A model generated the notes under the pieces. The model was not told the DNA's origin and made no database searches. It saw nothing but the letters and a program-made list of their open reading frames with translations. A stretch of DNA of 64,000 nt from a virus: IMG/VR virus record IMGVR_UViG_3300031552_000001, positions 64,001-128,000 of that record, one strand, 5' to 3'. How positions within the stretch are numbered: position 1 is the stretch's first letter; every line of letters starts with the position of its first letter. The position numbers and the translations under genes are program-made. This document shows, in pieces, positions 1 to 32,659 of the stretch.

Positions 1-2451
1 CATGCCCATTAAAGCAGGAGTGGCGAGACTCTTCTCTAACTCCGGGCACTCTCCCATCTGATTCAGTACGTCCTTTGGAAGAGAGGGTTCTGTTTGAGAA
101 AGTATAGGGGAAACCCTGCCCACTGCTTTACTAGGCCCTATCCTCTTTACAATCTCAGCCCATTTCAGGTGGGACATTTTCGTCTCGTTCGACACCTTCA
201 ATAATTCTTCGGGGCTCCACCCGTGATGGATAACTCGAGCTACCTTCACCGCAGCAATGTCTACAGAAGCTGTCTTGGCTTTAACGAGATCTCCAGAGTT
301 TGACCTAATAACGTTCAGCTCCTTGCCGCTAGAAGAGTCCCTCCATGTTTTTTCTCTTCGTCTAGCCGAGCCTGCGCCAGCAAATAGCTCATCTAAATTG
401 GCAGAAGCGACTTTCATAGTTCCGCCTTCCTCCGAAGCTACACTGAACTCGTCCTCCAAAATCAAATCGGCTACTTTATCTGACCAGATAGATGCTAACT
501 TTTCACCGTGCGCCTCTTTCCGGACAACCGCTTTTTTGAATAACGGGTAGGCCATAACGGTCAATGACCTAAAAAATTTCGGATTGTCGTAATGAGCTAA
601 ATAAGCAGCCTTTGCTTGCTCCGGAGTTTGGAACCCTAGCATCACTTTATCTTCATCATACTTGCCGGCCTTTCGACCATTAATAAAATTCTGGTGTACG
701 ATATAGACGTTCTCGGGGTCCCAAGGGCCTACGTAAACGTCTAGCTTGTCTCCGTCTACTCCTCGAGTTCCCAGAATCTCCCCGTATGGAAGCTTCATAT
801 GAGTCTTCCAGCCCTTACCTTCTCGAATATCACCAGGCCGGTTCTCTACATGAATAGTCAAACCTTTAAGTTTTATGGTCCCTGTAAAGGGAAATTCTTT
901 TCGATTAGGTTTTGGAGGAGGGCCAATCTTGATGTTCTTTGCGCGCTTAAACGTTTCCTCTAAATCAGCAGAAGAGGTTTTCATGCGATTTGGGTGAATC
1001 GTTTCGTGGTCTAGTTCCTTATCAAACTTTTCTTTATCTATTTCCTTCTTAGCGCCTTTCAGTGCGGTAAGGCCGTCTGGTCCGTCCCCGTCTACCCCAA
1101 ATTCTACAGTACGAGAGCTGCCGTAACTACCTAACCTCTTCGTAGCTAAAAGAACCCTGTCCAAACTAGCTAATAAGTCAGGGTTCCCCTCAATGTGATA
1201 ATCCCTACGGTCTACTTCATAAGACCCTCCTTTAACAAACGCGCTATCAGATAATTCTGCGCGGGGGTCCGTACCTCCTTGAGCTTTTCGTAAGTAGTAG
1301 TCTACGGTTTCTCTACGGCGGCATACACTACCCGGGGGCTTAGGATTCTCGCCCCTACCACGCCTCAGATAAAAGTCCATTATTTGGCTTCTTCTATCTC
1401 GTATCGGTTGTTCTCTCGATGAGTCAACTCCAGCGGACTCTTCTTCGTCTAAAGTTCCTGCATTTGTTCTAAGTACTCCGTCTTCTATTGCTGTAGGGCT
1501 TTCCTGATTATCTGTACGCCCCATGATAAGGCGAGTGTCTGCTTCATCCATAGGGTCGATAGAGGCTGTCTTTACTTGGATGCGGCACCCACTTACACAT
1601 TCTTTGCAAGTACCGACTCCACAAGCTGCTTTGATCAACCCGATTCTATCCTCTTGTAGGTTGTACACCGTTTCTGCGTCTATTACGGATTGAGGAACAT
1701 AAGAGCCAGACGCTAGCTTACACATCACCTTTGCTGTTTTATCTGCTCCAATAAATACAAAACTAATATCAAAGAACCTCGGATGAGGGTTAATGACGGA
1801 TATTCTTCTACCGTCGTCCAATATTTTACCTAAACCAATATTCTTTACGCAGCTACAGTAGTCTTCTCTAGTTTTAGACTTGTGCCCACAAATCGAACAA
1901 ACGTCGTACGGAATTCGCGTACCCATACTTACATCAGGAAACTCGCCAGCAAGGATCCTATCAACAACGTCTTGCGCACCATTCTGAAGAGCCAGCGCCT
2001 TATCGATTAGAACTACCAACTCCACCCTATGCATCTTAGCGTTCCAACAAGCCACTGCTACTGTGCCGAACGCTCGATTAGGATCTTTGTTTTGGTGATG
2101 CTTAAAAGGAAGCGCGTTAAGAAATGTCCAGTACCCGTATGGAGGTATAGGTTTACCTGTAAAATCGTCTATAGGATGAGACTGCCCGCTATGTAGTCTG
2201 CAATCATGAACAAGGGAGGCTTCCGGAAAGTCGTCCCCGTTCACATTAGCTCCATAATATTCAGACGCCCCTAACGCGTTTACCAAAACCGCTAGCTTAT
2301 TAGGGTCTTTTTGATAGCCGTTTAACCATTCCTGTACGGGGGGCATAAGATGCTTAGCCTCTTTAACCATAGTAATCTGTGGCTCAAAGAGGCAAACCAA
2401 AGGCTCCCCGTCAGGGGCAGTGCCTTTGAAAGTTGCTAGCTTAGTGATCAT
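1..2451 (-). CDS. Putative prohead protease (HK97/assemblin-like fold) fused to an InPase-like domain; 3'-truncated by the window edge and absent from the ORF track
   Basis: ATG at 2451 overlaps the TAA of the upstream gene (TAATG), and the frame stays open to position 1 (817 codons). N-terminal part: NVNGDDFP, PFKHHQNKD, DVSMG, CSICGH...YCSC, FFDISFVFIGADKTAKV. Positions ~575-870 encode GLTIHVENRPG...YGEILGTRGVDGDKLDVYVG...YDEDKVMLGF...AYLAHY. Confidence 0.75.
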   Translation of the reverse strand, partial: MITKLATFKGTAPDGEPLVCLFEPQITMVKEAKHLMPPVQEWLNGYQKDPNKLAVLVNALGASEYYGANVNGDDFPEASLVHDCRLHSGQSHPIDDFTGKPIPPYGYWTFLNALPFKHHQNKDPNRAFGTVAVACWNAKMHRVELVVLIDKALALQNGAQDVVDRILAGEFPDVSMGTRIPYDVCSICGHKSKTREDYCSCVKNIGLGKILDDGRRISVINPHPRFFDISFVFIGADKTAKVMCKLASGSYVPQSVIDAETVYNLQEDRIGLIKAACGVGTCKECVSGCRIQVKTASIDPMDEADTRLIMGRTDNQESPTAIEDGVLRTNAGTLDEEESAGVDSSREQPIRDRRSQIMDFYLRRGRGENPKPPGSVCRRRETVDYYLRKAQGGTDPRAELSDSAFVKGGSYEVDRRDYHIEGNPDLLASLDRVLLATKRLGSYGSSRTVEFGVDGDGPDGLTALKGAKKEIDKEKFDKELDHETIHPNRMKTSSADLEETFKRAKNIKIGPPPKPNRKEFPFTGTIKLKGLTIHVENRPGDIREGKGWKTHMKLPYGEILGTRGVDGDKLDVYVGPWDPENVYIVHQNFINGRKAGKYDEDKVMLGFQTPEQAKAAYLAHYDNPKFFRSLTVMAYPLFKKAVVRKEAHGEKLASIWSDKVADLILEDEFSVASEEGGTMKVASANLDELFAGAGSARRREKTWRDSSSGKELNVIRSNSGDLVKAKTASVDIAAVKVARVIHHGWSPEELLKVSNETKMSHLKWAEIVKRIGPSKAVGRVSPILSQTEPSLPKDVLNQMGECPELEKSLATPALMGM

Positions 2452-3218
2452 TAGCCTAGTCTTGGGTCATCCGCGGGCACAGCCTCTGAACCTTCCCAGA
2501 ACTGCGCCTTGTTTTTTGCTGCTTCGTATTCCTTCTCGGCAGTTTCCATGTTCTTTTGAGCTGTAAGAACTTGGAGGTTGCTAAGCGAATTTGGGCCCCC
2601 AATAGAATCGCTGCCAGAGGGCACAGATCCCATTGGAACCTTACTCATAAAAAATTCCTTACCGCTTCTACGCTTATTGGCGTCTGTAAGCTGCTTGTGC
2701 GCACCTACCAAATTGCTAACTGTGCCTATGTCGACCCTTTCTTGATCTAAGATATTCTTCACAAAAGTTCCTGCCACTAGCGGGTCTTCGGCATATGCCG
2801 GGTTGAATCTGTAAAGAGTATTAAATGCGTCCTCCACCGCCCCTGGATCTGCGTCGGAAAGATGGGGATTTTTGTCTATCATAGTTTCGAATGACTTCGC
2901 CTTGTGGACCTTATTTTTAACTGCGTCCACTAACTTGCCTGAATAGTCAGTAGCGGTGCCTATCAACGCGCCCAGCCCAACGGAGCCTGCCAGCAAAGGG
3001 GCAACGTCATGAGCCTGTGCGTAAGCTCTCTCAAAAAATCCGGCTTCAGGGCCCAGCCCCTTCACTAAATTTTTCCACCCCAGTTTTTCTGCTGCTTCTT
3101 TTCTGAATTGAGAGTCGCTTTCGTATTTGGAAAGAAAAGAACTTACGTTTTTTCCAATCCTCTCAACTTGCTCTTCAGTAAGAAGACCTTCGGCAGCCAA
3201 CTTTTCGATCAAGTTCAC
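2451..3218 (-). CDS. Hypothetical head-module protein with K-x-A motifs and a Gly-rich hydrophobic segment
   Basis: The track ORF starts at 3281. A better start is GTG at 3218, preceded by AGGAG overlapping the upstream TAG. The protein then begins (M)NLIEKLAAEG. Confidence 0.7.
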   Translation of the reverse strand: MNLIEKLAAEGLLTEEQVERIGKNVSSFLSKYESDSQFRKEAAEKLGWKNLVKGLGPEAGFFERAYAQAHDVAPLLAGSVGLGALIGTATDYSGKLVDAVKNKVHKAKSFETMIDKNPHLSDADPGAVEDAFNTLYRFNPAYAEDPLVAGTFVKNILDQERVDIGTVSNLVGAHKQLTDANKRRSGKEFFMSKVPMGSVPSGSDSIGGPNSLSNLQVLTAQKNMETAEKEYEAAKNKAQFWEGSEAVPADDPRLG

Positions 3219-3226
3219 GTTTGCTC

Positions 3227-3484
3227 CTACTGAAATTTTGGGATTGAAGGCACTGCTCGAGCATTTGCTGCTTGGAGCCACGGTTGGGTAAGCCCGGCTT
3301 GCGAATTCCTAACCCCCTGAGATACTATCGGTGCCGCCGTAGCTGCTACCAACCCCGTACCGGCAAGCCCCTTCCAGTGTCTACCAGCAAATCCAAGCGT
3401 TTTTCTTCCAGCAAGCTGAAGAGCCTTACCTACAAACGCTTCCTTAGTAATCTTTTCCGCTACTCGGCTAGACCTAAGAAGCAT
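3227..3484 (-). CDS. Small basic/hydrophobic hypothetical protein (head module)
   Basis: 85 aa that tile between neighbours; contains EKITKEAF and the hydrophobic stretch LAGTGLVAATAAPIV. Confidence 0.55.
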   Translation of the reverse strand: MLLRSSRVAEKITKEAFVGKALQLAGRKTLGFAGRHWKGLAGTGLVAATAAPIVSQGVRNSQAGLTQPWLQAANARAVPSIPKFQ

Positions 3485-5063
3485 TGCGCAACCCCTCTTT
3501 TATTGCCTTATCCACCAAGTTGTATTGATTTTGGATGCGCCTATTTGTTTCAGAAAATACCGTATCGCCTTCCGCAAGTTTACACATCGAGGCATAGATC
3601 TTTGCTATAGGGTGATTCAAATTAGGCACTCGATAGCAGGCGGTTTTACAAATACCGTATTGAATAGAATCCGCCTCTGCCTTAATAAGATCCATCCCTT
3701 GCTTAGACAATTCACCGCAAAGTGAGGCAAAAGCCAATTTAACTTCCGATTCGTTTCCGTTCACTTCATGCATAAGATGAGCAACCTCGCCCAAATTGCC
3801 TCCATTCCACATATATTGGCTAACAGCCTTGTGAAGCTCTGCGGAAGCTTCCTTTTTCATCTCCTCATTCTTTGCAGAGGCGCTGAAGCACTCATCTAGC
3901 ATCTTAGCTAATTTCTGCCTGGTTCGAATAAGACTTCCATATGGATTAGCCCACGGATAATAGTCTCGCTTGGAAACTTCCTTCTTGATAGCTTCCAAGG
4001 AGTGAGCCTCCTGCGCAGCCTTTATAAGAAGTCCTGCATGAGGTCGGCGCGCCCTAATGTAGTCAAATGCCTGCTTCGTGAAAGAGCCCATTTTTATTCC
4101 TTCACCCCCTGGAGGGGCCGTTACAGCCCCCGCCGCGGGGGCAGGAATCTGTTCTTCGGGCATAGGAAGCTGCCCTGCCATGGCTTCTGGAGCAGCTTCC
4201 GCAGGAGCTCCCGCTACTCCAGCGTCAGGAGGAGGACCTTCTGGGGCAGGAGCAGGGACCGCCCCAGGTTGGCCTTGAGGATTCATTGCGTCTAGGGTTT
4301 GTTGCTGCACCTTCTGGAGTTCTTGTCTTTTTTTAGCGAGCTCTATTTCCCGTTGAATCTCTAACATCTGTTTATTGTAGCTGTCTCCGTCCTCGGCCGA
4401 CATAGGCTCTTCTTGAGGCATTGGCGCTGGTGCTTGGGGCATCATGCCCGGGGCTACATCAGCTTGTTTAGACTTTTCATCTCCCAAAACTCGGGAAAGA
4501 ACAGAAGAATAGTCATCCCCGTTAGCACTCGCGTGTTTTGAGGTAAGATCAAAAATACGGTCTAATACCAAGTCTCCACTTTCATTCTTAGAGCGCTGAG
4601 CACAAGCTACTTTCTCCAATCCAGGAGGCGCAAAATCAACGCCCAAAAATAGCTTAGATAGTGCAGCGTCGGCTTCCAAACCCGCCTGCCCTAACTTTAC
4701 AGAACCGCGGGCATAGTCGTCGGCCGCAGGACTCATAGTCTGGGGCCGAGCCCCGTTATTGATCTCCAATAAAATCTCACCCGGGTCCGCTACCGAAAAA
4801 TCAATATTCTTGTCTGAAGCATACTTCTCATTATCACTGAACAGTCTAGAAAACGTCTCTTGGTTCGCGAATTCGACAACTCTACGTACCTGATGGGTAG
4901 AAATACTGGGATGCTCCCTAGCAATTTTTACAATCGAGTCGTTTAGTGAGCTGCTCCCAGAGAGGTATTCCACCGCAGCCCGTCTTCCCAAGGACTGTAG
5001 GTCTGAAGGACTCAAAGCGGCGTAGGTACTTTTTGATTCTAGACCAAATGGAATGTCGCTCAT
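3474..5063 (-). CDS. Hypothetical virion/head protein rich in K-x-A motifs, with a Pro/Ala/Gln-rich linker
   Basis: 529 aa; GAGG before the ATG; motifs KIAR, KYAS, KVAC, KHAS, KQAD, KQAF, KEAS, KLAF, KTAC, KLAE. Confidence 0.75.
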   Translation of the reverse strand: MSDIPFGLESKSTYAALSPSDLQSLGRRAAVEYLSGSSSLNDSIVKIAREHPSISTHQVRRVVEFANQETFSRLFSDNEKYASDKNIDFSVADPGEILLEINNGARPQTMSPAADDYARGSVKLGQAGLEADAALSKLFLGVDFAPPGLEKVACAQRSKNESGDLVLDRIFDLTSKHASANGDDYSSVLSRVLGDEKSKQADVAPGMMPQAPAPMPQEEPMSAEDGDSYNKQMLEIQREIELAKKRQELQKVQQQTLDAMNPQGQPGAVPAPAPEGPPPDAGVAGAPAEAAPEAMAGQLPMPEEQIPAPAAGAVTAPPGGEGIKMGSFTKQAFDYIRARRPHAGLLIKAAQEAHSLEAIKKEVSKRDYYPWANPYGSLIRTRQKLAKMLDECFSASAKNEEMKKEASAELHKAVSQYMWNGGNLGEVAHLMHEVNGNESEVKLAFASLCGELSKQGMDLIKAEADSIQYGICKTACYRVPNLNHPIAKIYASMCKLAEGDTVFSETNRRIQNQYNLVDKAIKEGLRNAS

Positions 5064-5123: not shown

Positions 5124-8100
5124 CTAATTCGTGGGAAGATTAGGGGATGACGTAATGTCAAGATCGTCCATGGTATCCTCATAGTCTTCCTCGCTCACCA
5201 ACCCATGCTCCCTCTGTATCTCTTTAGTGGGAAGAATAACGTCCGCTCGAGGTCTTATGTAAAAAGAGGCTAGAAAACCAAATACCATCGCGTGGAATGA
5301 GTCGTCGGTCCTCCCAGCAGCGCACTTGTAAATATTCATCCTAAGCCTATCATTGTACTCCGAAAATATGTTCAACATATCTATAGCAAAAGGCTCTTCG
5401 AATTCTTCCCACCGAGGAAACCAAAATACATTAGCCCTTTTTATTGCGTTAAAAACGTCTGACATCACCTCAGTGCGGTGGCATAAATGTCTCGGCACCC
5501 CCAGCTGGGCATCAAACTTTACCTTCTTCTTAACATTACCGACCCATTGGTATTTCTTCACCTTATCAGCTCCGAAATATCTAACAAGCTCGTCATTTGG
5601 CCAAAAACCCCCTCCGTAGTCTACTCCAATTTTTTGAACGTTAAATTCTCTAACTAGGTGTCGTATCTTCTTTATTTGCACTGCGGGCTCTGATTCTACA
5701 CCTTCAAATCTATGCCAATAGAACCAAGTGAATCTCTCAGGAGCAAACGGCAAATATCCTCCTAGGCAAACTACCGTGTAACTATTCTCGCCCGACCCCC
5801 AGTCAATTCCCATGAATATCGGATACTGACTGCTGTACTGCTTCACGTCTTTATAAAACTGCATGGACAACTCGTCCCAGCAGTTTCTTCTAACATCTCT
5901 TCGAGTAAGAGGTCTGGTGCCGGAATCATAACTTCTTCCAAGAACCTCATTGTAGAACTTAGCTCTGCTGTACACTCTCTGCTTGTTGAGTATGTCGTTC
6001 CAATCCATCCACGGAACCATAAGCTGAGGTATTCTAAATCCCTCAAATGGATTCTCAGTATTAGGATTGGGGTTAATTGCGCTCCAGCAGGCGTCGGGAT
6101 CGTCAGGTCGTATAAGCTTTCTACACCGGCTACAGATAAGACCGTCCGGGCCTATATTTTCCTCATCCAAAACATTCCAATGCCAGGAGCTTCTATTTTT
6201 TGGGGTTCCGTGTCTTTTACAAGGTACCACCCATTCGTTCTGCGTAGAGAACCTAGACCAGTAATACTCTATGGAGTTGTCTAAGGATTTAGGAGTTCCG
6301 GCGTAAATAAAATATTTGAATGATGAGTGAGACGCGCACTCCTCAATAACCGGCACGTTGTCGAGCAGAATGTCTTGGAATTCATCGATAACAACCAAGT
6401 CTGAAGGAATTCCACGAGTGTTATGCACTACTAGACCGTCTGCTACAAAGCAGCCAGATTCTTCCACGGTTAAATCATATACGTCATCCACTCCTTCTTC
6501 AAACACGCCCTTGACTCGGACCCACGACCGGGACGGGTCGCATAATCCTTTCAGATAAGAATCGTTCAGTTTATAAGCTATAGATAACAGTACTCTACGA
6601 CCAATACTGTCTTTGACGTTGCCTGGTCTAAGTTGAATTCTATATCTCGTCCAAGCAGAATGAGTGCTTAGGCCGTAATGCTCTTTTAAGTACCTCCTTA
6701 ACAACGCGTAAGATACAGGAATTCTGTCTTTGTCGTCTTTGCTTCTAGTAGTCTTAACCTCACATTTTCTAAAATGCCCAATAAGGTGTAAGAGCCTCTC
6801 TGTGGGGTACTTAGTCAAAGACAACGTGTAGCTTACTTTAGCCTTTTTTGTAGACGGCCTCTTGCGATAAATAGCGCTTCGAATGCCAAAATTCCATAGC
6901 ATCCTAGCCAAGCCCTCTATCAATTCCTTGGATGCACTAGAGTATCCAGCTCTAGCCCCTCCGTCGTCAGGGCTACACCAGCCATCCCCCCAAAATAATG
7001 CCCGTAAAAAAGCGATCTTCTCCGACTTAGGGGCAGACCATATGGCACGCGGTATCTTCTTATACTCCGCTTTTTTACCGAATTCCCCTAAGCTCCATAA
7101 AAGAGCCTTAGCTCCGTTAATGCCCTGTCCTCGACGGTCGGAGTACAGCCCTACATTCCAGCACGTTTTAAACCCCGGTCTAGAGTCCTCTACTCGAGAA
7201 CCTACAGACAGCCCCACCCTACGCGCTTTTACTTCAAACTCCCTCAAGTATTTCTTGTCAGAATTTGTAAACCTAACAGAGGACGGCTTGTTACACTCGC
7301 CTTCTGCTAACATGGCCCCTATGAGCCAAGCCATGTCCTCACCAACACTCAAAAAGGCGCACTCCTTGCCTGAATGGTGCGGGGCAGCTACAAAATCGCT
7401 TTTGAGGAGGTCTTCTGCATTTACCCAGCCTCGTTGCGTAAGAATAGGGTGGTCAAAGCTGCACATTAGTGGAACAGGATAGTCAGTCTCTACTCTGACT
7501 ATCCTTTTTCTTGCGCTTAAATGGGGGTTTGTAGCTGTAGCAATATAAGGCTTACCTTCTGTTGTCGAGGTAACGACCCGAACAGCCTTTCCTGCTTCTG
7601 CTAACTCCTTAATAGAGGCCAATGACCCGTCTGCTAAGTGTATTAGGCTGCTGCCATGCAAGCATCGGTCCGCGTTCAAAAATGCAAATCGAAGAGTTAT
7701 TTGTGAGTGGTTAATGAACCTCTTCTCAAACACATTTTTGAGGAGTCGATTATTGGTAGTTTGCTTCAAGAAAGGGGAAAGCTCTATAGGCTCAGCAATT
7801 CGGTCCCTACTGAACACTTTAGTTTGTTGGTTAGAGGGACTGACATAGAGCGCTCGAAAATAAGGGTTCATAAGCAAGTATGAAAGAGACACATTTCCCA
7901 GTAGCGTGCTGTTGTGCGCTACCAGCCCCTCAACGACAAAATTATGAGTATCACCTACCTCAAAGTCTACGCACTTGCAAATTCCTACTGGGGTGATCTC
8001 GACAACCCTGTCCCAATAAAGATCGGTGTCGGTGTGCGCAGCTAAAACATCCACCAACCCTTGATCGCATAATGAATCAGACCTAAAAAAACGAACATAC

Positions 8101-11001: not shown

Positions 11002-11194
11002 AGTGAAGAGCGGCTATTTTACTGAGTTCGTCTAGAAAAGACGACAGTACACTAGCGCTCTTCTCTACCTTTTCGGGGAGCTTCAAGCCCGTACTAGCAT
11101 TGTCCCAGTGTACTACGTCAGCGGGAGTAATGCCTGCTTTTCGCGCTCCAGCAGAGTGGAAGAATCTTCTTTGACGCTCACTTTTGTACGGCAT
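11000..11194 (-). CDS. Small phage protein (MPYKS...R-FF type) with C-terminal FLDELSKIA tag
   Basis: The MPYKSERQRRFF...WD..STGLKLPEKV pattern is one I recognise from small phage proteins. It ends SFLDELSKIAALH. Confidence 0.7.
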   Translation of the reverse strand: MPYKSERQRRFFHSAGARKAGITPADVVHWDNASTGLKLPEKVEKSASVLSSFLDELSKIAALH

Positions 11195-11199: not shown

Positions 11200-12756
11200 T
11201 TAACTCGTAGACATTGCCATATAGCGCAACTCATCCAAAAATGAGCAAGCCAGTTTTTGAAAGTATAGAGGCCCACAAAAATTCTTCCAAGCTGTTTTCT
11301 CTATCTCACCTTTTTCAAGATGCCATCCACTAAATCTTGGTTGAAAAAGAGCACCCCTGTCCTCAGTTCCGAAACGCTTTGTCGCCCTCACTTTTGCTAC
11401 TCTCCCAATATATTTGTTCTGGTTTTTCAGCATATCCTTGCCCATAGCGTGAGGAAAGCCCCCTACTTGTCCTACAATAGGCCCGTCTTCTGTCCAAGAG
11501 TAGCTTACAGAGCCGGCTCTATCGTGAGGCTCTCCCGTTTTTCCACTTACGGCAGGGTGTATTTTCCTTACATAGACATCAAAATCCGGAATGATTTTTG
11601 CTTTTGTTGGGGCGCTAGAAGACTGCTGTTCCACAAGGACTACGCCCTCTCTTGTAAGGGGGTACTTGCCTGTTATTATGCTTTTAAGAAGGGAGGATTT
11701 ATCTTTGGGTGTTAATGCCATTTTCGGCATCCAAAGGTCTTTAATTTTTTCTTCTACCTCTTTAAGGATCTTTAACTTCTCCACAAAAGGTGCGTCCACT
11801 ACAGATTTACCCTTATGTCTTACAACGTCGAAAGGGAACGCATGTAAGGTCGCATCCAGCTCTTTTTGTTTATCTCTACTTTCCCATACCTTCGTATTGA
11901 GAAGGCCCCCTATCACCTCTGACGGCAATGCCTTCCCTTTAGAGTCTAACGCTATAGTTTCTCCTCGAAGTATAGTTTTATCCAATTCCTTAGGAACTTT
12001 GTCCTTCAGCAGCTCTGTCAGTTTATGCGTGTGTTCAATAAGGCCGGTCGGGGTCAGCTTTCCTACTCTATAGGAGAATACTCTTGGAGCGCGCCCGGCC
12101 TTCAAGTCTATTATAGAATGAGCCCCATCAAGCTTAGGCATCATAATCTGGTCAGTTCTATTTGGGTCTACTTTGTCAATGTCTACTTCTTTATAACTGG
12201 CCTTACCAGAAGGTATATCCGGCCTACGTTCTCTAGTAACTGTCTTGTTGTGTATGAACCACCTTCCAGCGTCATCTCTGCGGATAGAAAATTCTTCAGG
12301 GTGCCTTTTGTCGTATAGGTTAAATCTAAGCTTAGTTCCAGGTGAGTCATCAGGCGCCGCATGATAAACGTCGGCTTTTGTTCGCCGGCCTTTCTCTACG
12401 ACCCCCTTTCCGTATTCGGTAGATATACGACCCAAAAAATCCATATACGGAATAGTATGGTCGTAGGTGGGCACCAATAAAGAAGACTGGCCGGGCTTTG
12501 GGAGCTCTTTTCGTCTTGGTAATACAAAAGAGTGAGCAACGCCGGTCTCGGGGTTGCCTAAGCGTAAGTCTACATGCGGGCCGGCTCTTTCTGCTAAATG
12601 GGGGTGAGCGGACATCTCCCAAACTTCTGGTTTTACCACCTTAGGCAGAGCAGTCACCTTTCGTTTAGGCACTCCAGGACCTAAACCACCGTCTTGATAG
12701 TAACGACTTTCCCTTTTCGTAACCCTCGCTGCTATCTTCTCCAGACGGCTAAGCAT
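11200..12756 (-). CDS. lig: ATP-dependent DNA ligase with N-terminal LigD-like phosphoesterase domain
   Basis: Motif I PKLDG, III LRGE, IIIa FPFDV, IV EGVV, V KAKI, and OB-fold QPRF. The N-terminal HLAERAGPHVDLRLG resembles the LigD phosphoesterase H-x-A...H-x-D-x-R-L motif. Confidence 0.85.
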   Translation of the reverse strand: MLSRLEKIAARVTKRESRYYQDGGLGPGVPKRKVTALPKVVKPEVWEMSAHPHLAERAGPHVDLRLGNPETGVAHSFVLPRRKELPKPGQSSLLVPTYDHTIPYMDFLGRISTEYGKGVVEKGRRTKADVYHAAPDDSPGTKLRFNLYDKRHPEEFSIRRDDAGRWFIHNKTVTRERRPDIPSGKASYKEVDIDKVDPNRTDQIMMPKLDGAHSIIDLKAGRAPRVFSYRVGKLTPTGLIEHTHKLTELLKDKVPKELDKTILRGETIALDSKGKALPSEVIGGLLNTKVWESRDKQKELDATLHAFPFDVVRHKGKSVVDAPFVEKLKILKEVEEKIKDLWMPKMALTPKDKSSLLKSIITGKYPLTREGVVLVEQQSSSAPTKAKIIPDFDVYVRKIHPAVSGKTGEPHDRAGSVSYSWTEDGPIVGQVGGFPHAMGKDMLKNQNKYIGRVAKVRATKRFGTEDRGALFQPRFSGWHLEKGEIEKTAWKNFCGPLYFQKLACSFLDELRYMAMSTS

Positions 12757-14231: not shown

Positions 14232-16259
14232 TTAATTAGAAAAACTCAGCTCTTTTTGCTGAAGAGACTGTAAACCTAAAATTACGTCTTCCAACGCCGC
14301 AAGCATTCGCTCTACGGCAACTTCTGGGACCTCTTTAAGGCCAATCCTAACCGCTAACAAAAGCTCGGCTAATTTAGACGACGCGGCTTGCAGCGCAGGC
14401 AATAGGTCAACGAAAGTAGAGACGTTTTCAGCGTTTAGAAACCCCAAACCCAAGATCTTGTCCGCTGTAAGCGCATCATCCAGTACAGTAGCTTCCTTAG
14501 CTAAAAAGTAATTGTAAATAGGGGGGTTTAGCTCCGACAGTTCCTTTTTTAGCTCTCCTCTGATGGAAGCTAGCTTCTCTCCTACAGAACCCAACACCTT
14601 GAGGCCCCCTACTGAAACTCTCTCCCCGCGTTGGGCTCTATCCAAAGCAGTTTTACAAAACGTCGGCTCCATGCCCAACGCTACCCCTAAGAACATCGCA
14701 TCTTTTCTGTTGACGAATTTGGTGTAGTCCGAGGCAACTTTAGCAATCGCGGGCCCTCTGAACGTAAATATGTCTGCGGTATCGCCTACTATATCCACCG
14801 TGCCAAGCTTGTTATCGAACGCGAGTTTCGAAAACATAGTAGGGTCAGAAACGAGCTCCGTTTTACCTCTCAGGGGCATCCAGTTTAAGAAATTGGGGAG
14901 CACCCACTCCGATTCCCCCATCTGTACTGGCTTGGCTAGTCCTTCTCCAAAAGAAAACGTTACTTGACCCCCTAGCTCTGTTTCCGCCAAGAAACGAACC
15001 CCTGTTGGGGACTGCATTGAGCTGATTACCGTCATCGGAACAAAAGCTTTTGCCGTACCGTGGTCTATGTAATAAAGAGTGCCGTACCCTTTTGGTATCC
15101 CTTTTGGTATATCAGTGGACTTACCGGCTACCTCACCCGCAATTGTTTCCTGAACAGCGTACTGGGACCCATTGGTGAATAGCGACAGAGGAAGTACCTG
15201 CAAATCCAATGTCATGATCTTTGGAAACACCCACCCTATAAGAGTGTTGCCGGTGCTATCTTGCACTTTCCAAATACCAAACGAATCGGCGGCCTTCACC
15301 TCTTCAGCTTCTAAGGTTTGCTTCACAGGAGCGTCAGGACTTACTGTAACAGAGCCGTCACTTTCCAGCCGTTCTTGCATGTCCTGATCACCCATCATGT
15401 CTTGGGCAACCGACATGGGCACCTCTTCCTGCTGAGGAGCAAACATGCCGTCCGTAGCCCACTTCACTAGCGCTCTGTTGGTTCCCAGCTTACTTAGCTG
15501 TACAACAGTAGGTTTAATATGATTGGCTACGAAAGAAGCTACTTTTTCTGGGTCTGAGGGCGATAGTCTAAGAGCAGAAGCAAACGCTGCCTTTACCCCT
15601 TCGTTTCCATTACGTACTGCCGCATTCATCGAAGGGTCTGATAATGCTTCTTTAAGTCTCGAAGCGTGACCTTCTTTAATACGCCCGTATAGCAACGGCA
15701 AAAGCGGAAGATTTTCAATTTCCTTTTGCGCACTTCCTACTTTCGCCCCTCCAGAACCAAAACCCCCAAACCCCGATCGAAGAGGGGGCTGCAAATCATT
15801 GACCAGAGAGGGGTCCATTGGTCGAAGCCTAGTAACGTCAAAAGCCTCTGGCCTCATAAGCATCTCTCGAAGTCGGCTCTCTGTTAGCCTGTAATACTTC
15901 TTACCACTAATAAAAATATCCAAAGGAGAGAGCATCTGCTCTTTTACGACAATAGGTATGTGCGCTTTGTCTAACCCGGACGTCTGCATTTCCTCTACAG
16001 TCATCGCCGTTTTAGGCCTAACCTCAATAGAGCCGAAAGCGTAGCCTCTCTCTTCATCTTGCTTGTCTATAAGTACATGTACTTCATACGTGCTCAGATA
16101 CGGAAGCTGCTTGTACGCCTCTTGAATAATCTCTTGGGGCCAGTTATCGACATTATCCCCTAATCTGGTAAGCATCCCAGCAAGCTTTTCAGTTCCCTCA
16201 AATTGGATAGGGGCGTCAAGGAACAGGGCTTCTTGTACAGACATGGTATTTCTCCTCAC
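14232..16259 (-). CDS. Hypothetical virion/head protein rich in K-x-A motifs
   Basis: 675 aa; KLAG, KVAS (twice), KLAF, KTAL, KLAS, KEAT, KLAE. Confidence 0.75.
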   Translation of the reverse strand: MRRNTMSVQEALFLDAPIQFEGTEKLAGMLTRLGDNVDNWPQEIIQEAYKQLPYLSTYEVHVLIDKQDEERGYAFGSIEVRPKTAMTVEEMQTSGLDKAHIPIVVKEQMLSPLDIFISGKKYYRLTESRLREMLMRPEAFDVTRLRPMDPSLVNDLQPPLRSGFGGFGSGGAKVGSAQKEIENLPLLPLLYGRIKEGHASRLKEALSDPSMNAAVRNGNEGVKAAFASALRLSPSDPEKVASFVANHIKPTVVQLSKLGTNRALVKWATDGMFAPQQEEVPMSVAQDMMGDQDMQERLESDGSVTVSPDAPVKQTLEAEEVKAADSFGIWKVQDSTGNTLIGWVFPKIMTLDLQVLPLSLFTNGSQYAVQETIAGEVAGKSTDIPKGIPKGYGTLYYIDHGTAKAFVPMTVISSMQSPTGVRFLAETELGGQVTFSFGEGLAKPVQMGESEWVLPNFLNWMPLRGKTELVSDPTMFSKLAFDNKLGTVDIVGDTADIFTFRGPAIAKVASDYTKFVNRKDAMFLGVALGMEPTFCKTALDRAQRGERVSVGGLKVLGSVGEKLASIRGELKKELSELNPPIYNYFLAKEATVLDDALTADKILGLGFLNAENVSTFVDLLPALQAASSKLAELLLAVRIGLKEVPEVAVERMLAALEDVILGLQSLQQKELSFSN

Positions 16260-26655: not shown

Positions 26656-26922
26656 ATGGTAGAGAAGATCTTAAATGCCCTCTTGGCCACAAGAAGAAGG
26701 GAACCTCAAACATTTGCCAGAATAATGAATTTCCTCGGCAAAGGAAGAGCGCCAATCGAATTTGATGCACCCGACATAGCAAGGCTTCCGTGGAAGGAAA
26801 CGTCTACTGGAAAATTTATCGTCCTCGTGAAAAACAAAAAGGTCGTCATGGCCTTAGGATGCCCGGAAGGAAAAAAGCCTTACGTTACGACGGTAGAATG
26901 CACAAACATCGTACCTCAATAA
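26656..26922 (+). CDS. Hypothetical protein
   Basis: AAGGAAGG upstream; the gene ends just before a terminator. Confidence 0.6.
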   Translation: MVEKILNALLATRRREPQTFARIMNFLGKGRAPIEFDAPDIARLPWKETSTGKFIVLVKNKKVVMALGCPEGKKPYVTTVECTNIVPQ

Positions 26923-26962: not shown

Positions 26963-27826
26963 CTACAAGGAAACAGTGGGCGTAGGTTTAGGCCCTAATG
27001 GAGCTGTAGGGACTCCACCTTCAATCAGAGGCATTCTAACAGGAGCGGGTGCTGCTCTGCGGGGGAGAGTTAAAGGGGCCCTAGCGGGAGCGGATTTAAT
27101 CTGAGATAAGGCTCGGCCCTTAGAACCGCCTCCTATAAGCCGATAAAGCTGTTCCTTATTTAGCCCTTGTTCAGACCTTCCTATCGCTTTTTTCATATAG
27201 GGAGTAAATTTACGCAGTCCCGATTCGGTTAAGTTAAGTACGTTACCGGCCATACCCCCCATACCCTCAGCCTCCCCTTTATGCATAGGAAGAACATCAA
27301 TAGCTTTTTCGCCTCGGATATTGGCCTTCCTAATGTCCTCTAATTGATAGCCCTTCGAAGCTCCAGCTCTTTGGAGCTCTTCTTTGATTGTAGCTTCTGC
27401 TCTACGTCCAGGCTCTCCTCCCGGTACGTATTCATGAAAAGTAGCCCGACCGCCTCTGCCTGTTCTTGCGAAGCCGTAAGTCTTAGCCAGCCTCGGAGAA
27501 TCTACGACCTTAGACATTTGTAGCTTGCGCCCTACCATCATAGGAGAAGCTATAGCGGAAGTGGGGTCATAGAGCTTACGAACCGCTACCCCATGCTCCG
27601 GGTGAGCTACCAAATCGGCTATTCCTTCGCTACCGCCTCCGAGGTGCTTGATGTGAGACCCCATAGCTGAGGGTTTCAACACTCCAGGGGTCTTTGCTAG
27701 TCGGCTAGCCTGCTCAAGCGCCCCACTGGTTCCTTTAGAGAACAGGTTCTTAATAAGACGGAAACCGGCTCTGGCTGAGATCTTCTCAAGCTCGTCTTTA
27801 AAAGCAAGTAAAGAAGTAGAATTCAT
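26963..27826 (-). CDS. Minimal protein-kinase-like protein with N-terminal FKDELEKIS tag
   Basis: LGGGSEGIADLV (Gly loop), VAVRKL, SPRLAKTYG, FHEYVPG, EDIRKANI (catalytic loop), AIDV. Confidence 0.6.
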   Translation of the reverse strand: MNSTSLLAFKDELEKISARAGFRLIKNLFSKGTSGALEQASRLAKTPGVLKPSAMGSHIKHLGGGSEGIADLVAHPEHGVAVRKLYDPTSAIASPMMVGRKLQMSKVVDSPRLAKTYGFARTGRGGRATFHEYVPGGEPGRRAEATIKEELQRAGASKGYQLEDIRKANIRGEKAIDVLPMHKGEAEGMGGMAGNVLNLTESGLRKFTPYMKKAIGRSEQGLNKEQLYRLIGGGSKGRALSQIKSAPARAPLTLPRRAAPAPVRMPLIEGGVPTAPLGPKPTPTVSL

Positions 27827-29835
27827 GCCGCTGCAGCCTCGGGCCCTCTCATGGGAGGTTTCTGCTCAGGCATAGGCTGAGCCGCAGAGTTCACATTAGC
27901 CCCTCTAGACTGCTGCATAAGCTGCAATATCAACGAATAGAGTTGAGGATTACTGCTTCTCATCTGCATAAGGTGCTGCTGCTTCTCCTGCTCGGGTAGC
28001 TGATTCAGCCAACTCACTACCTTATTCGCTATATCAAGAACCCCAAGTTGGGAAGGTTGATTAGACACCAATTGAGATTCACCAGAAGCAGTAGGGGATT
28101 CCTCCTGACTCATCTCCATAGGAGGCACCTGACCCGCTTGATTCATCATCCCGGTTTGAGCGTTTATGGCAGCACCTTGCGCTATAGGGCTAGACATGCC
28201 AGGCTGACCTGCGGCCGCCATACCCCCCTCTTGCATCGCTCTTTGGTCTTTTGGATCCATAGGGGCTACTTGTTGCTCCATCAAAATTTTCTGCGCTCTA
28301 GTTTGATACTTGATTTGAACCAGTTGGGCCTCACCTTGAATGCCTGCCTGAGCCAAAGCTTGAGACCTTTGATTTTCGAGCACTCTCTTTTGCTCTACGG
28401 ATATTAGCTCAGATTCTTTGACTGCATCCCAGTCCATGTCCTCAAGTAAAGACTTGTCAGACAACTTACCCGCTTGATTCATTTGCAAAAATAGGGCGCT
28501 ACGCTGCAAATCATCCGCCATTTTGAACCGTTTGTAATGTACAGGTACGGTCTCCCACCCCATATACGCGCCTATATTTGGCAGGATAAAATCAGTAACC
28601 AACTGTTTATGTTGTGTCCTTTGATCTAAAAAATGATTCTCCAAAATTCTCAGAGATACGTTTGAACCGCTATAGCTCATTCCACCGAAGACGAACTCTA
28701 TCGGGACTCCCATGCCTGCAATAATATGCTCTGCCCATACGCGATATTCTTGTGCCAACATTAAGGCTCTTCCATCGCCGCCTAAAGTCTGTTGGCCTAC
28801 TGGAATAGGAAGTAGTGGGATGTAGTTGTTATCTAACCTCCATCGAATAATCTCCTGCTCTATTTTGTCTCGCCATTGTGTAAGATTAACAGACGAATAT
28901 ACAGAAGCATCTGGAGAGGAGGTCTGTGGAAACAGCAAGCGTAATGGGACGATATGTTCTACTGCAATGGCTTCTTGGGCCTTACGCAATATTTGGAGGT
29001 AGAAAGCGTCTTTGAGAACAGGAAGAACCATGGGCATCCCCCACCCCTTGTCCTTTTGGGCAATGGTAGGGCGCTTCATGTGGTAAATGTTATCCCGACT
29101 AAACAATAACGCTTTATTCTGACGAAGGGCCTCAATAAACACTTGAGGAGTGCGCTCTATGATATGCCGCTTAGCCATTCGGACATCATTCGCAAGCATA
29201 GGAGGGATAACGTAGTAGTATCTGCTCTCTCCCGTAGCCTCATTGTGCTGAATTGTGACGTACTCCGGGTTCCACCTAATTAAATGAATATCCCTTACTG
29301 ATCGAACGTAATGATCTCTGACCTGAAACTCTTGGTGGTGGTCGCATCTTTGACAGTTACCTACAAACTTGTAATCTCTAAAAGTGTACTTCTGTTTTTC
29401 TACCCTAGACCGATGCCCGCAACTCTTGCAAATGAGAAGCTTATGGAAAGGGAATGAAATAGATATGAACGCGTTACCGTAAGCTTGATAGTCAAGCCCT
29501 GCTTCCACTTCAAACTTCTTGAAGTTTAAAACTGACCCAAAACAATACTCCCATTGCTTACGAAGCGGCTCGTTTTCTGTATCAAAGACTAAGTCAGTTA
29601 TGGGGTATTCTGCCATTTTAGAACAGACGGCGTTGATAAGCGGGTTAGTTAAAAAGTAATACCTGCACCAACGCAACATCGTTTTAAACGACGACGGCAA
29701 ATACGTATGAGCTATATCAAAAAAAGGAGAAGGGTATCTAATGGCCCCCAGGGCTTCACTAGTTAACGACCGTCCAGTATTCCTAGAGAATCGCATACCG
29801 CCAGAAGGACCGAATGTTAGAGCATCTATGCTCAT
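27823..29835 (-). CDS. Portal protein
   Basis: Size and position; NPLINAVCSKMAEY, WGMPMVLPVLKDAFYLQILRKAQEAIA, IIAGMGVP; coiled-coil and Q/M-rich C-terminus. Confidence 0.7.
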   Translation of the reverse strand: MSIDALTFGPSGGMRFSRNTGRSLTSEALGAIRYPSPFFDIAHTYLPSSFKTMLRWCRYYFLTNPLINAVCSKMAEYPITDLVFDTENEPLRKQWEYCFGSVLNFKKFEVEAGLDYQAYGNAFISISFPFHKLLICKSCGHRSRVEKQKYTFRDYKFVGNCQRCDHHQEFQVRDHYVRSVRDIHLIRWNPEYVTIQHNEATGESRYYYVIPPMLANDVRMAKRHIIERTPQVFIEALRQNKALLFSRDNIYHMKRPTIAQKDKGWGMPMVLPVLKDAFYLQILRKAQEAIAVEHIVPLRLLFPQTSSPDASVYSSVNLTQWRDKIEQEIIRWRLDNNYIPLLPIPVGQQTLGGDGRALMLAQEYRVWAEHIIAGMGVPIEFVFGGMSYSGSNVSLRILENHFLDQRTQHKQLVTDFILPNIGAYMGWETVPVHYKRFKMADDLQRSALFLQMNQAGKLSDKSLLEDMDWDAVKESELISVEQKRVLENQRSQALAQAGIQGEAQLVQIKYQTRAQKILMEQQVAPMDPKDQRAMQEGGMAAAGQPGMSSPIAQGAAINAQTGMMNQAGQVPPMEMSQEESPTASGESQLVSNQPSQLGVLDIANKVVSWLNQLPEQEKQQHLMQMRSSNPQLYSLILQLMQQSRGANVNSAAQPMPEQKPPMRGPEAAAA

Positions 29836-29843: not shown

Positions 29844-30650
29844 TTACCCGTAGTATTTTTGAATAGTGTTCAGTTGCTCCACAGCTTCACTGGGCGACGG
29901 GGCTCCAACAGCCGTCCTTACGCTGGCCCCAGACCTGACTCTATCTAAAACTCTGCCTAAGCGAGAGCCTAAGCTGGTGGCTCCGTACCAGAGCCCCATT
30001 GCTGGCGCGATACCTAACCCGCTACCTAAAATCATTCCCCCAGCGCTACCTAGCTCCCCTATTCCCTTCTCTAAGGCCCCTCCTTCGCCTGTAGGAGTGG
30101 CCTTCTGCGCGTTCACAACACTTGGGATTCCCATGCCCGCAAAGCCTACGGTCATCCCTTTGCTACCTACAGGGAGATACTTCGTGAGGTTTCCAGCTCC
30201 TGTCCACCCTTTTCGTGATAACTCCTCAGCAACCGATCTAGCTTTACCCGCATTCGGAGAAGTGCCTAACAAGTGCTCCCCGCCCCCCAATAGTTTCTTA
30301 TATGCTCTAGGATTGGTGGTCTTTAAAGAAGTAGCGGCCTCACTGGCGCTTCCAAACCCCAAGGCCTTTGCTCGTTGCTCCATACCGTGTAAAGGGGTAG
30401 AAGCTTCCCAGCCCTCACGCAGCCCCTTTATTGGAGAAAAAGCCCGCCGAGCGCCTTCAGCCCCCCCTCTAAATAACCCATTTTTACCTCGACTAATTTT
30501 ACCAACCGCTTTTAAGGACAACCGTGTAGGGTTTCTTAACGCAGTTGTAGAAAGGTACTTTCCTATACGTCGAAGAATCTGCCCCTGCGCCAGTTTTTGC
30601 AGCTCTTCCGAAAACACATCAAACATAACTGGTGTTAAGGTTTCACCCAC
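29844..30650 (-). CDS. Gly/Ala-rich basic protein with hydrophobic segments and N-terminal FSEELQKLA tag
   Basis: 268 aa immediately upstream of portal; segment GMILGSGLGIAPAMGLWYG. Confidence 0.65.
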   Translation of the reverse strand: MGETLTPVMFDVFSEELQKLAQGQILRRIGKYLSTTALRNPTRLSLKAVGKISRGKNGLFRGGAEGARRAFSPIKGLREGWEASTPLHGMEQRAKALGFGSASEAATSLKTTNPRAYKKLLGGGEHLLGTSPNAGKARSVAEELSRKGWTGAGNLTKYLPVGSKGMTVGFAGMGIPSVVNAQKATPTGEGGALEKGIGELGSAGGMILGSGLGIAPAMGLWYGATSLGSRLGRVLDRVRSGASVRTAVGAPSPSEAVEQLNTIQKYYG

Positions 30651-31510
30651 GTTTTCAACTCCTCGAGCTGCTCTACAAGCTGCTTGTTCCGAAGCTGCAT
30701 ATATTCGTAAGCTACCATAAGCTTAGCCGCCTGGACGTCCTCCGTTATCGTTTCATCCAGATTTAAAGAGTCTACGCCCTTACTTTTCATTCCGAGAAAC
30801 TTTGCTTCTACCAGCTTGGGATCGTACCTGAGAAATTTTTCTATATCCCTACCCGCCTTATCTGGGACCTTGGGATTAGGTTTCATGTTAAGCGGGTGTT
30901 CGTCCGAAAATCTTGCGGTACAGAAGTCGCATCGCCCGTCGAGGTCATCGCTGTCGACGTTTCCGCAGACTTTGCACACATAGGAGGGTCGGGACAACTT
31001 TCCTTGGGCAAAATCCAATGGAGCCGGTAAGTAGGTGACCCCTTCGTCGAGTGCGCAGGCCGCAACATACCTTTGAGGCTCATCATTATAGACCTCTTTT
31101 CGGATAGTGTTAGCTATGTCTACTCCCGCCATTAGCTGCGACAGTGTACAGCGCTGCGCAATATCGAATCTGGGAATATTGTTATTGAGAGCCTGTATAA
31201 TTTTTTCGAAGATGTGCCATTCTTTCCAAAAGCCAACTGTAGACGTTAGCGTTCGTACAGCTTGTATCTTCTGCCAATTTTGCTCGCTTATGGAGGTAGC
31301 TTTAAACGTATCGAGAATTTCTTGCTTTAGCGTAGTGGGCTCCCATTCCATCCAAGACGCTCCGAACTTTTCCAAAAGCACCATTGTAAGCACTACAGGG
31401 TGCGCGTCATGAAAACTAAACAGTCGAATGATGGGCTCTAAGGAAGCCTGAACAGGAGCTGGAACTTTACTTACGTCCAGCCCCCATTTAACCATAGGAA
31501 CTGAATTCAT
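30635..31510 (-). CDS. Hypothetical protein with a zinc ribbon
   Basis: CKVCG...CDFC; lies in the head operon. Confidence 0.7.
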   Translation of the reverse strand: MNSVPMVKWGLDVSKVPAPVQASLEPIIRLFSFHDAHPVVLTMVLLEKFGASWMEWEPTTLKQEILDTFKATSISEQNWQKIQAVRTLTSTVGFWKEWHIFEKIIQALNNNIPRFDIAQRCTLSQLMAGVDIANTIRKEVYNDEPQRYVAACALDEGVTYLPAPLDFAQGKLSRPSYVCKVCGNVDSDDLDGRCDFCTARFSDEHPLNMKPNPKVPDKAGRDIEKFLRYDPKLVEAKFLGMKSKGVDSLNLDETITEDVQAAKLMVAYEYMQLRNKQLVEQLEELKTWVKP

Positions 31511-31519: not shown

Positions 31520-32659
31520 TCAAACGATCTGTGCCACTTCACTTTGTTCAGGATGATCTGAGGCCATTCTGCATATGAGTTTCTTTTGGGGAGTCGGCAT
31601 AGAATCAAAAATGGCTACCGGGTTTTTCTGAAACTCCTTACACACATCCTCTGTAAATACTTTTTTTAGCTCACAAAGACGATTCTGGGCTAAGTCTGTA
31701 AGCTGTTCCGTAGTTACCCTATCATTACCCCCATCCCAAAGTACTTCGGCAGTTTTATTTATTCCAAAGGTAGAAGCCCATGGGTCTAGAACGTAGTTAT
31801 CCCAAAGGCGGTCGAGCCCCTCCTTCACATCGAACCTTCGAAGAGCCTCAGCGTACACATCAGGCTCTATAGAAGACCTCTTCTCAAAAAGTTCCTCTAA
31901 AAATAGCCGAGAATCCCCCTTAGGGTCACACGCTACCTTACGCATCTCTACAGCAGCTTTAAGATGGCCTTCGGAAGCCCACCCAACAGCGCCTAAGTCG
32001 GAAATCTCAGGGTCTAATGGATACCCCATAGAACAAGCTTTAGCAGCCAACTTCGTTGCGTATTGCCTCCGGATTTCGGGCTCCATTCGCTTCTTTTCGT
32101 CTTGGAAGTATTCCTCTGCTTTCTTTACAAGATCCCAGGAGTAGATAGGGTAGCAGTGACGACCGTCTGGTAAAACTACAGCGTAATCTTCAGACCGCCT
32201 CGATTGTGCCTGCTTTACTTTTATCTGCGGACGCTTACCTGTAATGTCTACCGCCCCTTTCCGCACAGACCCTACTTTATCTAATGACTTATCGCAGTTG
32301 GGGGCCAACATAGCCAGCTTCCGTAAAGCGGGCGGCCCCTCGATGCCGAATGCGGCACACTTAGAAGAAAGATTCCAGGCTGCTGTCTTTTGCGCTTCTT
32401 CAGGAAGCTTGTCTCCATGCTCCATGAAGTAAATAACTGACATTGCCGTCGTACCGGGATCGTGACAGGCAAACTTATGTAGAACATCCCCGCCATCAAT
32501 TGCTACAAGAGCAAAATCTGCGTGATCAAGCTTTTCTAGTGGTTTAATATCGGCCTCTTTGATAACACCAGGCAAAGAATCCGGTGTGGGGAACTTACTT
32601 TTTAGAGTATCTCCATGATCATCGTACCAGTCCAATACGACTCCGCTCATTCTTCCCAT
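31520..32659 (-). CDS. Hypothetical head-module protein rich in K-x-A motifs
   Basis: AGGAG upstream; KEAD, KTAA, KLAM, KQAQ, KKAE, KLAA, KVAC, KTAE. Confidence 0.75.
   Translation of the reverse strand: MGRMSGVVLDWYDDHGDTLKSKFPTPDSLPGVIKEADIKPLEKLDHADFALVAIDGGDVLHKFACHDPGTTAMSVIYFMEHGDKLPEEAQKTAAWNLSSKCAAFGIEGPPALRKLAMLAPNCDKSLDKVGSVRKGAVDITGKRPQIKVKQAQSRRSEDYAVVLPDGRHCYPIYSWDLVKKAEEYFQDEKKRMEPEIRRQYATKLAAKACSMGYPLDPEISDLGAVGWASEGHLKAAVEMRKVACDPKGDSRLFLEELFEKRSSIEPDVYAEALRRFDVKEGLDRLWDNYVLDPWASTFGINKTAEVLWDGGNDRVTTEQLTDLAQNRLCELKKVFTEDVCKEFQKNPVAIFDSMPTPQKKLICRMASDHPEQSEVAQIV

Follow-up and report, generated by a model that had tools for sequence, protein, structure and literature searches.

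Why would a DNA ligase, a protein-kinase-like enzyme, and several small orphan proteins of a phage carry nearly the same short peptide at one terminus? This question is raised by a 64,000-nucleotide stretch of DNA (the window), bases 64001-128000 of one 192,137-bp phage contig (IMG/VR record IMGVR_UViG_3300031552_000001), whose minus-strand block contains structural and packaging genes. A preliminary description of the window had noted the peptide, here called the tag, together with many Lys-x-Ala (K-x-A) tripeptides in head proteins, and had proposed that a Lys-based cut consensus and a helical tag load diverse cargo into the head. The K-x-A enrichment and the conservation of the tag stood up to analysis, and a protease domain of the phage T4 gp21 fold and an arrangement of tag and site suited to excision were found in addition. 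In our view the tag is probably a capsid-targeting propeptide that resembles the one of T4 but has a new sequence and follows a Lys-x-Ala cut rule. What bears on this reading was computed in the present study: motif statistics, conservation, modularity, tag-site geometry, and protease fold.

The tag has the consensus [AS]-F-x-[DE]-E-[LI]-x-K-[ILV]-[AGS] with a nine-residue core, F-x-D-E-L-x-K-I-A. Its hydrophobic residues lie at i, i+4, i+7, and i+8, often with a further one at -3 or -4, as in an amphipathic helix. All six terminal peptides listed in the preliminary description were found where it had placed them (Table 1; LEKIAA lies at 12727-12744, -, within the ligase N-terminus), and the strict pattern has no other occurrence in the six frames of the window. 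When the whole genome was scanned with a weight matrix, 10 matches of at least 16 bits were obtained against 0.18 expected from shuffled proteins, which bears out the claim that a near-identical terminal motif recurs on unrelated minus-strand proteins. All 10 are on the minus (structural) strand; two are C-terminal and eight lie in the first 31 residues, as counted in the open reading frame (ORF) called from the most upstream start. The genome count is partly circular because nine of the 10 matches were used to build the matrix, and independent tests of tag abundance are provided by a complete relative, G001 (196,807 bp), and by 80 capsid-gene loci from IMG/VR (984 kb; tag threshold of at least 15 bits). 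Five copies lie outside the window, one at genome 62210-62515 and four in consecutive small genes at genome 145618-147612, and weaker copies begin two further head-module proteins. Synonymous codons vary among the copies, which indicates that it is the peptide that is under selection; on this ground, an element at the DNA or RNA level was rejected as the basis of the tag.

Among the tagged proteins of this genome, common sequence is limited to the 13-24-residue tag region, and shared descent of the carriers was rejected because they have no similarity outside the tag. The body of the kinase-like protein matches protein kinases, and the ligase protein matches PF01068 and PF13298 in Pfam. The likely start of the 268-residue protein is an ATG four codons upstream (MFDVF...). 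Almost the entire gene for this protein is covered in antisense by a 284-residue frame (29866-30720, +); the minus-strand gene is taken as real because of its context and its tag. The protein at 2451-3218 was assigned a GTG start at 3218 from its 28 orthologues, which start M-x(1-3)-[LIV]-[VI]-[ED]-K-L-[AS]. The idea that some cargo is membrane-active is not established, since the proteins in question contain only Gly/Ala-rich segments with a 19-residue Kyte-Doolittle peak of 1.3-1.6, under the usual transmembrane threshold of 1.6. Neither Pfam nor PHROGs contained a family for most tagged or K-x-A-rich proteins, and a literature search with the tag motif strings found no paper describing them. 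Two observations concern the copies outside the window. The tagged protein of ~90 residues (genome 62210-62479, -) is encoded 2.7 kb upstream of the capsid gene; its tag and a C-terminal motif, K-P-T-N-Y-S-x-V ... V-P-P-P-P-V-R-T, are conserved, and its middle is variable, Pro/Ser/Gly-rich, and apparently disordered. Directly downstream of the four consecutive tagged small genes lies a gene for a sigma-factor-like protein (phrog_351, E 1e-13; genome 144810-145604, -), the N-terminus of which weakly resembles the tag (11.8 bits).

The tag proved to be conserved and portable in relatives. The major capsid protein is encoded just outside the window (genome 58631-59758; phrog_2522), as is the tail sheath, and has more than 2000 metagenomic relatives at E of 1e-10 or below, with identities of 70-93% among the 120 matches listed. 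Uncultured phages of this kind therefore form a large clade. Among cultured phages, the closest are Salmonella phage Arash and Vibrio phages D69, D148, and D181, with only 26-27% identity in this protein. Close orthologues of the kinase-like protein keep A-F-x-D-E-L-E-K-I-[AS]-A-R-A-G. G001 contains seven tag matches against 0.1 expected, and five of the seven tagged proteins have no homologue in the studied genome. The 80 capsid loci contain 66 matches, all on the capsid strand and 58 of them within 25 residues of the ATG, with the consensus M-x(2-8)-[AS]-F-x-D-E-L-x-K-I-[AGS]; F, D, E, and L are nearly invariant across loci whose capsid proteins are 67-93% identical. Thus, conservation in orthologues, which the preliminary description had made a test of its proposal, was observed: the tag is kept at termini and moves between unrelated proteins. 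Its description as a terminal element holds for the N- and C-termini but is incomplete, because in many relatives it is found where proteins are fused, flanked by K-x-A on either side. Fused ORFs of relatives have the order tag-domain-tag-kinase-like body or two tandem tags.

The distribution of the tag has limits. Only six of 150 representatives of the MPYKS family (start M-P-Y-K-S-x-x-Q-R-R-F-F) carry it, always after a ~45-residue module. This module, M-P-Y-K-S-x-A-Q-R-R-F-F-H, is itself very widespread and usually followed by a Lys-rich tail; the long proteins P0293, P0312, P0401, and P0411 match the 64-residue MPYKS query in 5-13 stretches, perhaps by chance or low complexity. A distant clade of the kinase-like protein has F-W-x-x-x-[LIM]-W-K-x-A-A in place of the tag, and its protein gave no match to cultured phages in a tblastn search. 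Single-protein scans of viral contigs with two tagged proteins retrieved no relatives, and an alignment-based scan retrieved only two. Neither Arash nor a 157-kb high-GC relative contains the strict tag DNA pattern, which suggests that the tag is clade-restricted.

K-x-A sites were counted in 120 proteins against within-protein shuffles. The four head-module proteins named in the preliminary description contain 12-22 sites against 3-7 expected (z 4.0-6.3, p ≤ 0.002) and rank 1, 2, 3, and 5 of 120 by z. Their enrichment was therefore rightly noted, whereas the estimate of about 8-10 sites each was too low: the 1055-residue protein has 22, of which 18 fall within the window (ORF 1-2451), and the other three have 12, 14, and 12. 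The ten highest z-scores also include four head-module proteins encoded nearby. The remark that plus-strand replication enzymes carry few sites holds in the sense that plus-strand proteins are at chance level (86 vs 89 expected), so the enrichment is strong against the shuffled null and specific to head proteins. A scan of all 400 X-x-Y patterns in eight head proteins placed K-x-A first (118 vs 43.8, z 11; next pattern z 4.7), and no X-x-E pattern, as an A-x-E-type motif would give, was among the eight most enriched in this set. The same scan of all other proteins did not show the K-x-A signal. This ranking is partly circular because the head set was picked by its K-x-A z-scores; the G001 orthologues, the per-family ratios over loci, and the per-protein shuffles are free of that circularity. 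In the G001 orthologues, K-x-A occurs 55 times against 32 expected (z 4.1), and only W-x-W, with a count of two, ranks above it; the orthologue of the 379-residue protein has the highest K-x-A z in G001. Over the 80 loci, head families are 1.9-3.7-fold enriched, whereas terminase and sheath are at 0.8 and tail proteins at or below expectation. L-x-K (57 vs 32) and K-x-x-S are enriched as well, giving an extended site [L]-x-K-x-A-[SA], although ordinary K-x-A sites need almost no context.

The lysines of these sites are better conserved than other lysines in four families (0.66 vs 0.45, 0.42 vs 0.19, 0.50 vs 0.14, and 0.99 vs 0.80), and marginally so in a low-complexity 505-residue family (0.43 vs 0.37). 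In the capsid protein, K25 and A27 are invariant, in the context ...G-K-D-K-I-A/E-Y-G-G. Just upstream of the capsid gene are encoded a helical 118-residue protein and acidic 237- and 505-residue proteins with 5, 11, and 15 K-x-A sites, respectively, which look like scaffold proteins destined for degradation. The 237-residue protein (genome 62481-63194, -) and its 21 orthologues have a conserved N-terminus, M-N-x-F-L-A-E-M-Y-x-T and then D-V-E-K-L-A, which may be a second kind of leader. In Arash, three head proteins upstream of the capsid gene are K-x-A-rich, and in one of them K-x-A is the top pattern (10 vs 3.0 expected); the counts in OQ632216.1 at 145210-148976 and 174466-175335 are 10/3.0, 7/3.2, 8/3.1, and 8/3.5 (seen/expected). 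In the Arash capsid protein (26% identical), a K-E-A near residue 29 lies about as far from the N-terminus, as judged by eye and not by alignment. Since these Arash proteins have K-x-A and Arash lacks the F-x-D-E-L tag, the cut rule may predate the tag.

A candidate for the cutting enzyme was found at the N-terminus of the 1055-residue protein, which extends beyond the window start and whose gene lies 4.7 kb upstream of the capsid gene. The domain matches a head maturation protease family (phrog_18299, E 1e-5). Its AlphaFold model (predicted local distance difference test score, pLDDT, 66.6) has T4 gp21 as the best PDB match (5jbl_B; Z 9.5, root-mean-square deviation 2.9 Å over 131 residues). 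Herpesvirus proteases rank next, at Z 5.4-8.5, and unrelated matches to MCE domains show the background level, Z ~6. No protease match was obtained in Pfam, and PDB sequence searches gave no useful match. H82, H118, H119, D173, and S175 are invariant in 22 orthologues and include candidate catalytic His and Ser residues, which could not be matched to the active site of gp21. In 44 loci the domain is conserved, and the rest of the protein varies, from ~300 to 1800 residues. These data point to a prohead protease of the gp21 fold encoded in the head module. The domain ends in ...GADKTAKVMCKLAS, with two K-x-A sites, and these, together with the sites around the InPase domain, resemble the self-trimming of gp245 of phage SPN3US. 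With a protease-fold domain and an InPase domain among head genes, the 1055-residue protein fits the class of polyvalent proteins.

The tag and the K-x-A site are coupled. N-terminal tags finish with K-[ILV]-[AGS]. In ligase homologues, the tag comes directly after the enzyme body (...W-H-L-D-K-G-x-I-E-K-x-A/F-L-D-E-L...) and either is C-terminal or is followed by a further domain of 38-470 residues. A K-x-A site lies at most eight residues upstream of 29 of the 41 internal or C-terminal tags (71%, against 4% background), and the K-x-[AGS] at the tag end is kept in 27 of 29 tags with at least 38 residues downstream and in five of 12 at the extreme C-terminus; these counts come from related sequences, which inflates the p-value. 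With K-x-A at the tag end and also upstream of internal tags, the tag would be excised at either location. The simplest reading is that cuts on both sides release the neighbouring domains and discard the tag. From these patterns it is likely that K-x-A is the cut motif of the predicted prohead protease.

In the mechanism that these features suggest, the tag would be a portable amphipathic-helix propeptide that, presumably through a binding partner, directs proteins into the assembling prohead. There the phage's own maturation protease of the gp21/assemblin fold would remove it by cutting after Lys-x-Ala, with Ala, Gly, or Ser predicted at P1 and a preference for Ser or Ala at P1'. This enzyme would also chop the K-x-A-studded scaffold-like head proteins, trim ~27 residues off the major capsid protein, and cut multi-domain proteins at tag-bearing junctions. 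The putative cargo comprises the LigD-type phosphoesterase/DNA ligase, the small protein-kinase-like enzyme, the basic 64-residue MPYKS-module protein, and several small orphans; it would be carried inside the head and probably reach the host cell along with the DNA.

The main rival to this mechanism is that the tag is only a cleavage cassette, that is, a linker or an element that the K-x-A protease recognizes with high affinity, and that it has no role in capsid entry. The tags at domain junctions with K-x-A on both sides, found in many ligase homologues and fused ORFs, are what such a cassette would give, and the tag half L-x-K-x-A matches the extended context of ordinary sites, in which L-x-K is enriched. 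Ordinary sites are nearly context-free, however, whereas the tag is almost invariant at F, D, E, and L; residues conserved beyond the needs of a site argue for a second function. Clipping 13-17 residues off small proteins would have no evident purpose unless the peptide had acted beforehand. Moreover, proteases of the gp21 fold act inside proheads in T4 and SPN3US, so that their substrates are already there. We regard a pure cassette as unlikely, and the balance tips slightly towards a targeting role of the tag.

It is also conceivable, at a still lower probability, that the tag docks to a partner other than the capsid, such as the phage RNA polymerase or sigma factor, a host hub protein, or the membrane, and that K-x-A is incidental. 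A helix with this hydrophobic spacing is a common form of docking motif, a sigma-factor-like gene adjoins one tagged cluster, and some tagged proteins contain Gly/Ala-rich hydrophobic stretches. All copies, however, are on the capsid strand within structural-gene blocks, and a helix with the acidic D-E pair is unlikely to target membranes. The frequent upstream site and a downstream site that decays only when nothing follows it would be unexpected if K-x-A were incidental. That the motif has no function, and reflects chance or composition, a DNA-level repeat, or an ancestral N-terminal domain of paralogues, is highly improbable. Both motifs are short and were defined post hoc in Lys/Ala/Glu-rich proteins, but shuffles give 0.04-0.4 tag matches against the 7-10 seen, K-x-A was singled out by the 400-pattern scan, the codons vary synonymously, and the ligase, kinase-fold, and orphan carriers have no similarity outside the tag. 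A compositional artefact was rejected by the shuffle controls and the 400-pattern scan.

Several points weigh against the targeting propeptide itself. Cutting, packaging, and delivery, which formed part of the preliminary proposal, are still inferred, and the phage is uncultured. Indirect support comes from the cultured relative Arash, whose virions contain, by mass spectrometry, RNA polymerase beta and beta' (abundant), a sigma factor, and two RNA ligases (PMC10585845); however, 116 proteins are listed there as virion proteins, and the authors consider that some enzymes may be abundant infection-stage carry-over in purified particles (PMC10585845). The tag of the kinase-like protein and its K-I-S lie inside one confident AlphaFold helix (residues 3-31, pLDDT 86-97), which means that this helix must unfold for cutting, or that the tag could instead belong to the fold. 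In the available flanks of the clade with the variant F-W-x-x-x-W-K-x-A-A, no second carrier was found, and co-variation with a partner was thus not seen. In addition, p-values across loci overstate independence because homologous sequences were used.

Mullaney and Black reportedly described in 1996 a capsid targeting sequence on the internal proteins of T4. Internal proteins of T4 that are otherwise unrelated enter the scaffolding core by means of this sequence (PMC3012670); it is present on IPI-III and Alt and is removed by the prohead protease gp21 (PMC3012670, PMC9958956). The present system is similar in that a short leader is common to unrelated proteins and is bounded by the predicted cut motif of a gp21-fold protease, in the presumed delivery of the cargo together with the DNA, and in the head-gene order of protease, scaffold-like proteins, and capsid protein. 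It differs in that the leaders have no sequence similarity, the nine-residue core usually follows 2-8 residues and is not at Met1, the predicted P1 residue is Ala/Gly/Ser (with Lys at P3) where T4 has Glu, C-termini and fused-protein junctions with a site on each side are further locations of the tag, and the putative cargo includes a DNA ligase and a kinase-like enzyme. Given the unrelated consensus and Ala/Gly/Ser at P1, the system would be T4-like in its working but is not a sequence member of the T4 system.

SPN3US strips N-terminal propeptides at a three-residue motif (PMC10052503). As in phiKZ (protease gp175), 201phi2-1, and SPN3US (gp245; PMC10052503), in which many head and ejection proteins lose N-terminal propeptides, the presumed propeptides here have several sites and the protease would trim itself on its C-terminal side. 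In contrast, the motif of the giant phages, A-x-E, ends in Glu, a shared address peptide is not known there, and the protease of the present clade is the N-terminal domain of a multi-domain protein of 550 to 2000 residues. Herpesvirus assemblins cut maturation sites of the form [VLI]-x-Ala/Ser. They share with the candidate protease the fold (Z 5.4-8.5), and with its predicted specificity Ala at P1 and the Ser preference at P1', whereas Lys replaces the aliphatic residue at P3 and the phage system has many substrates. The cargo peptides of encapsulins and microcompartments are short, terminal, often helical peptides on unrelated cargo that bind the shell interior, which has the HK97 fold in encapsulins. 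The tag is likewise a short terminal peptide on unrelated cargo and possible at either terminus, but no protease removes the cargo peptides, and their setting is the cellular compartment and not the virion.

For polyvalent proteins, Iyer et al. (2017, PMC5512222) predicted packaging in the capsid. The 1055-residue protein carries, among head genes, the InPase domain defined in that work, and the ligase homologues fused to InPase, GNAT, and kinase modules fit packaged effector arrays of this kind. The main processing enzyme in that paper is a zincin-like metallopeptidase (PMC5512222), and neither a fusion to a prohead protease nor a linker or tag peptide turned up in a term search of its text.

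A wider reading, on which we see the evidence as evenly balanced, would extend the mechanism to the whole clade. Uncultured myoviruses of ~190 kb would use one excisable nine-residue address peptide with flanking Lys-x-Ala, placed at N-termini, at C-termini, or between domains, to load a changing set of enzymes for injection, namely a DNA-repair ligase, a protein kinase, pyrophosphatase arrays, and small basic proteins. The cutter would be a gp21-fold protease, fused to effectors, that combines a herpesvirus-like Ala specificity with a Lys requirement. If so, a sequence rule would predict which orphan genes of an abundant uncultured clade encode virion-delivered proteins, a first-strike toolkit against host defences that is otherwise invisible in metagenomes. 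Lys at P3 with Ala at P1 would be a new specificity in the gp21/assemblin family and would connect, in a single fold, the herpesvirus proteases that cut after Ala with the phage proteases that cut after Glu. A tag that is two-sided and independent of position could also be a portable handle for loading foreign proteins into capsids.

Table 1. Tags, K-x-A-rich proteins, and other features of the window. Positions are those of the window unless marked as genome positions.
Feature	Position	Strand	Basis or remark
Predicted prohead-protease domain, N-terminal ~250 residues of the 1055-residue protein (genome 63284-66451)	1642..2451	-	phrog_18299 and fold
Rest of the 1055-residue protein; InPase domain (residues 523-641) flanked by K-x-A	1..1641	-	PF18823, E 9e-31
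Short N-terminal tag (M)NLIEKLAA of protein 2451-3218	3192..3218	-	IEKLAA at 3192-3209; 28 orthologues
K-x-A-rich 529-residue head-module protein	3474..5063	-	12 sites vs 4.6 expected; family 3.7-fold enriched over 34 loci
C-terminal tag FLDELSKIA of the 64-residue MPYKS-module protein (11000-11194); K-S-A before the tag	11012..11038	-	Peptide search
C-terminal tag FLDELRYMA of the ligase (11200-12756); K-L-A before the tag, the tag's own Lys lost	11215..11241	-	Peptide search, homologues
Reduced N-terminal tag MLSRLEKIA of the LigD-phosphoesterase/ATP-ligase protein	12730..12756	-	Homologues keep M-x(1-5)-L-S-K-[IL]-A-A
K-x-A-rich 675-residue protein	14232..16259	-	14 sites vs 3.6 expected; G001 orthologue 14 vs 7.4
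N-terminal tag FKDELEKIS, residues 9-17 of the 287-residue kinase-like protein (26963-27826)	27776..27802	-	Weight matrix and orthologues
Probable portal protein	27823..29835	-	Between two tagged genes; lead only
N-terminal tag FSEELQKLA of the 268-residue protein (29844-30650)	30588..30614	-	Peptide search and matrix
K-x-A-rich 379-residue protein	31520..32659	-	12 sites vs 3.2 expected; G001 orthologue 17 vs 7.0

The minus-strand block of the window also includes a large terminase, a fused RNA polymerase, and the portal candidate, in addition to the LigD-phosphoesterase/ATP-ligase gene. The portal candidate had no match in Pfam, PHROG, or PDB sequence searches, and the ten best named protein-atlas clusters are all portal families (scores 0.92-0.93), which serves as a lead only. 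The terminase is a 1474-residue ORF (5124-9548, -) with two inteins containing LAGLIDADG endonuclease domains (PF14890, PF14528). RNA polymerase beta and beta' are fused in one 2656-residue ORF (17451-25421, -) within the structural-gene block, with K-x-A at chance level (15 vs 15.5 expected) and no clear tag; the homologous region of Vibrio phages D181 and D148 consists of several ORFs and a homing endonuclease. A 391-residue protein (16256-17431, -) shows weak VgrG/baseplate-spike matches (PF04717, PF10106) under the curated cut-offs. Two small plus-strand gene islands interrupt the block, one at 9838-10974 (+) between the terminase and the 64-residue gene and the other at 25799-26922 (+) between the RNA polymerase and the kinase-like gene.

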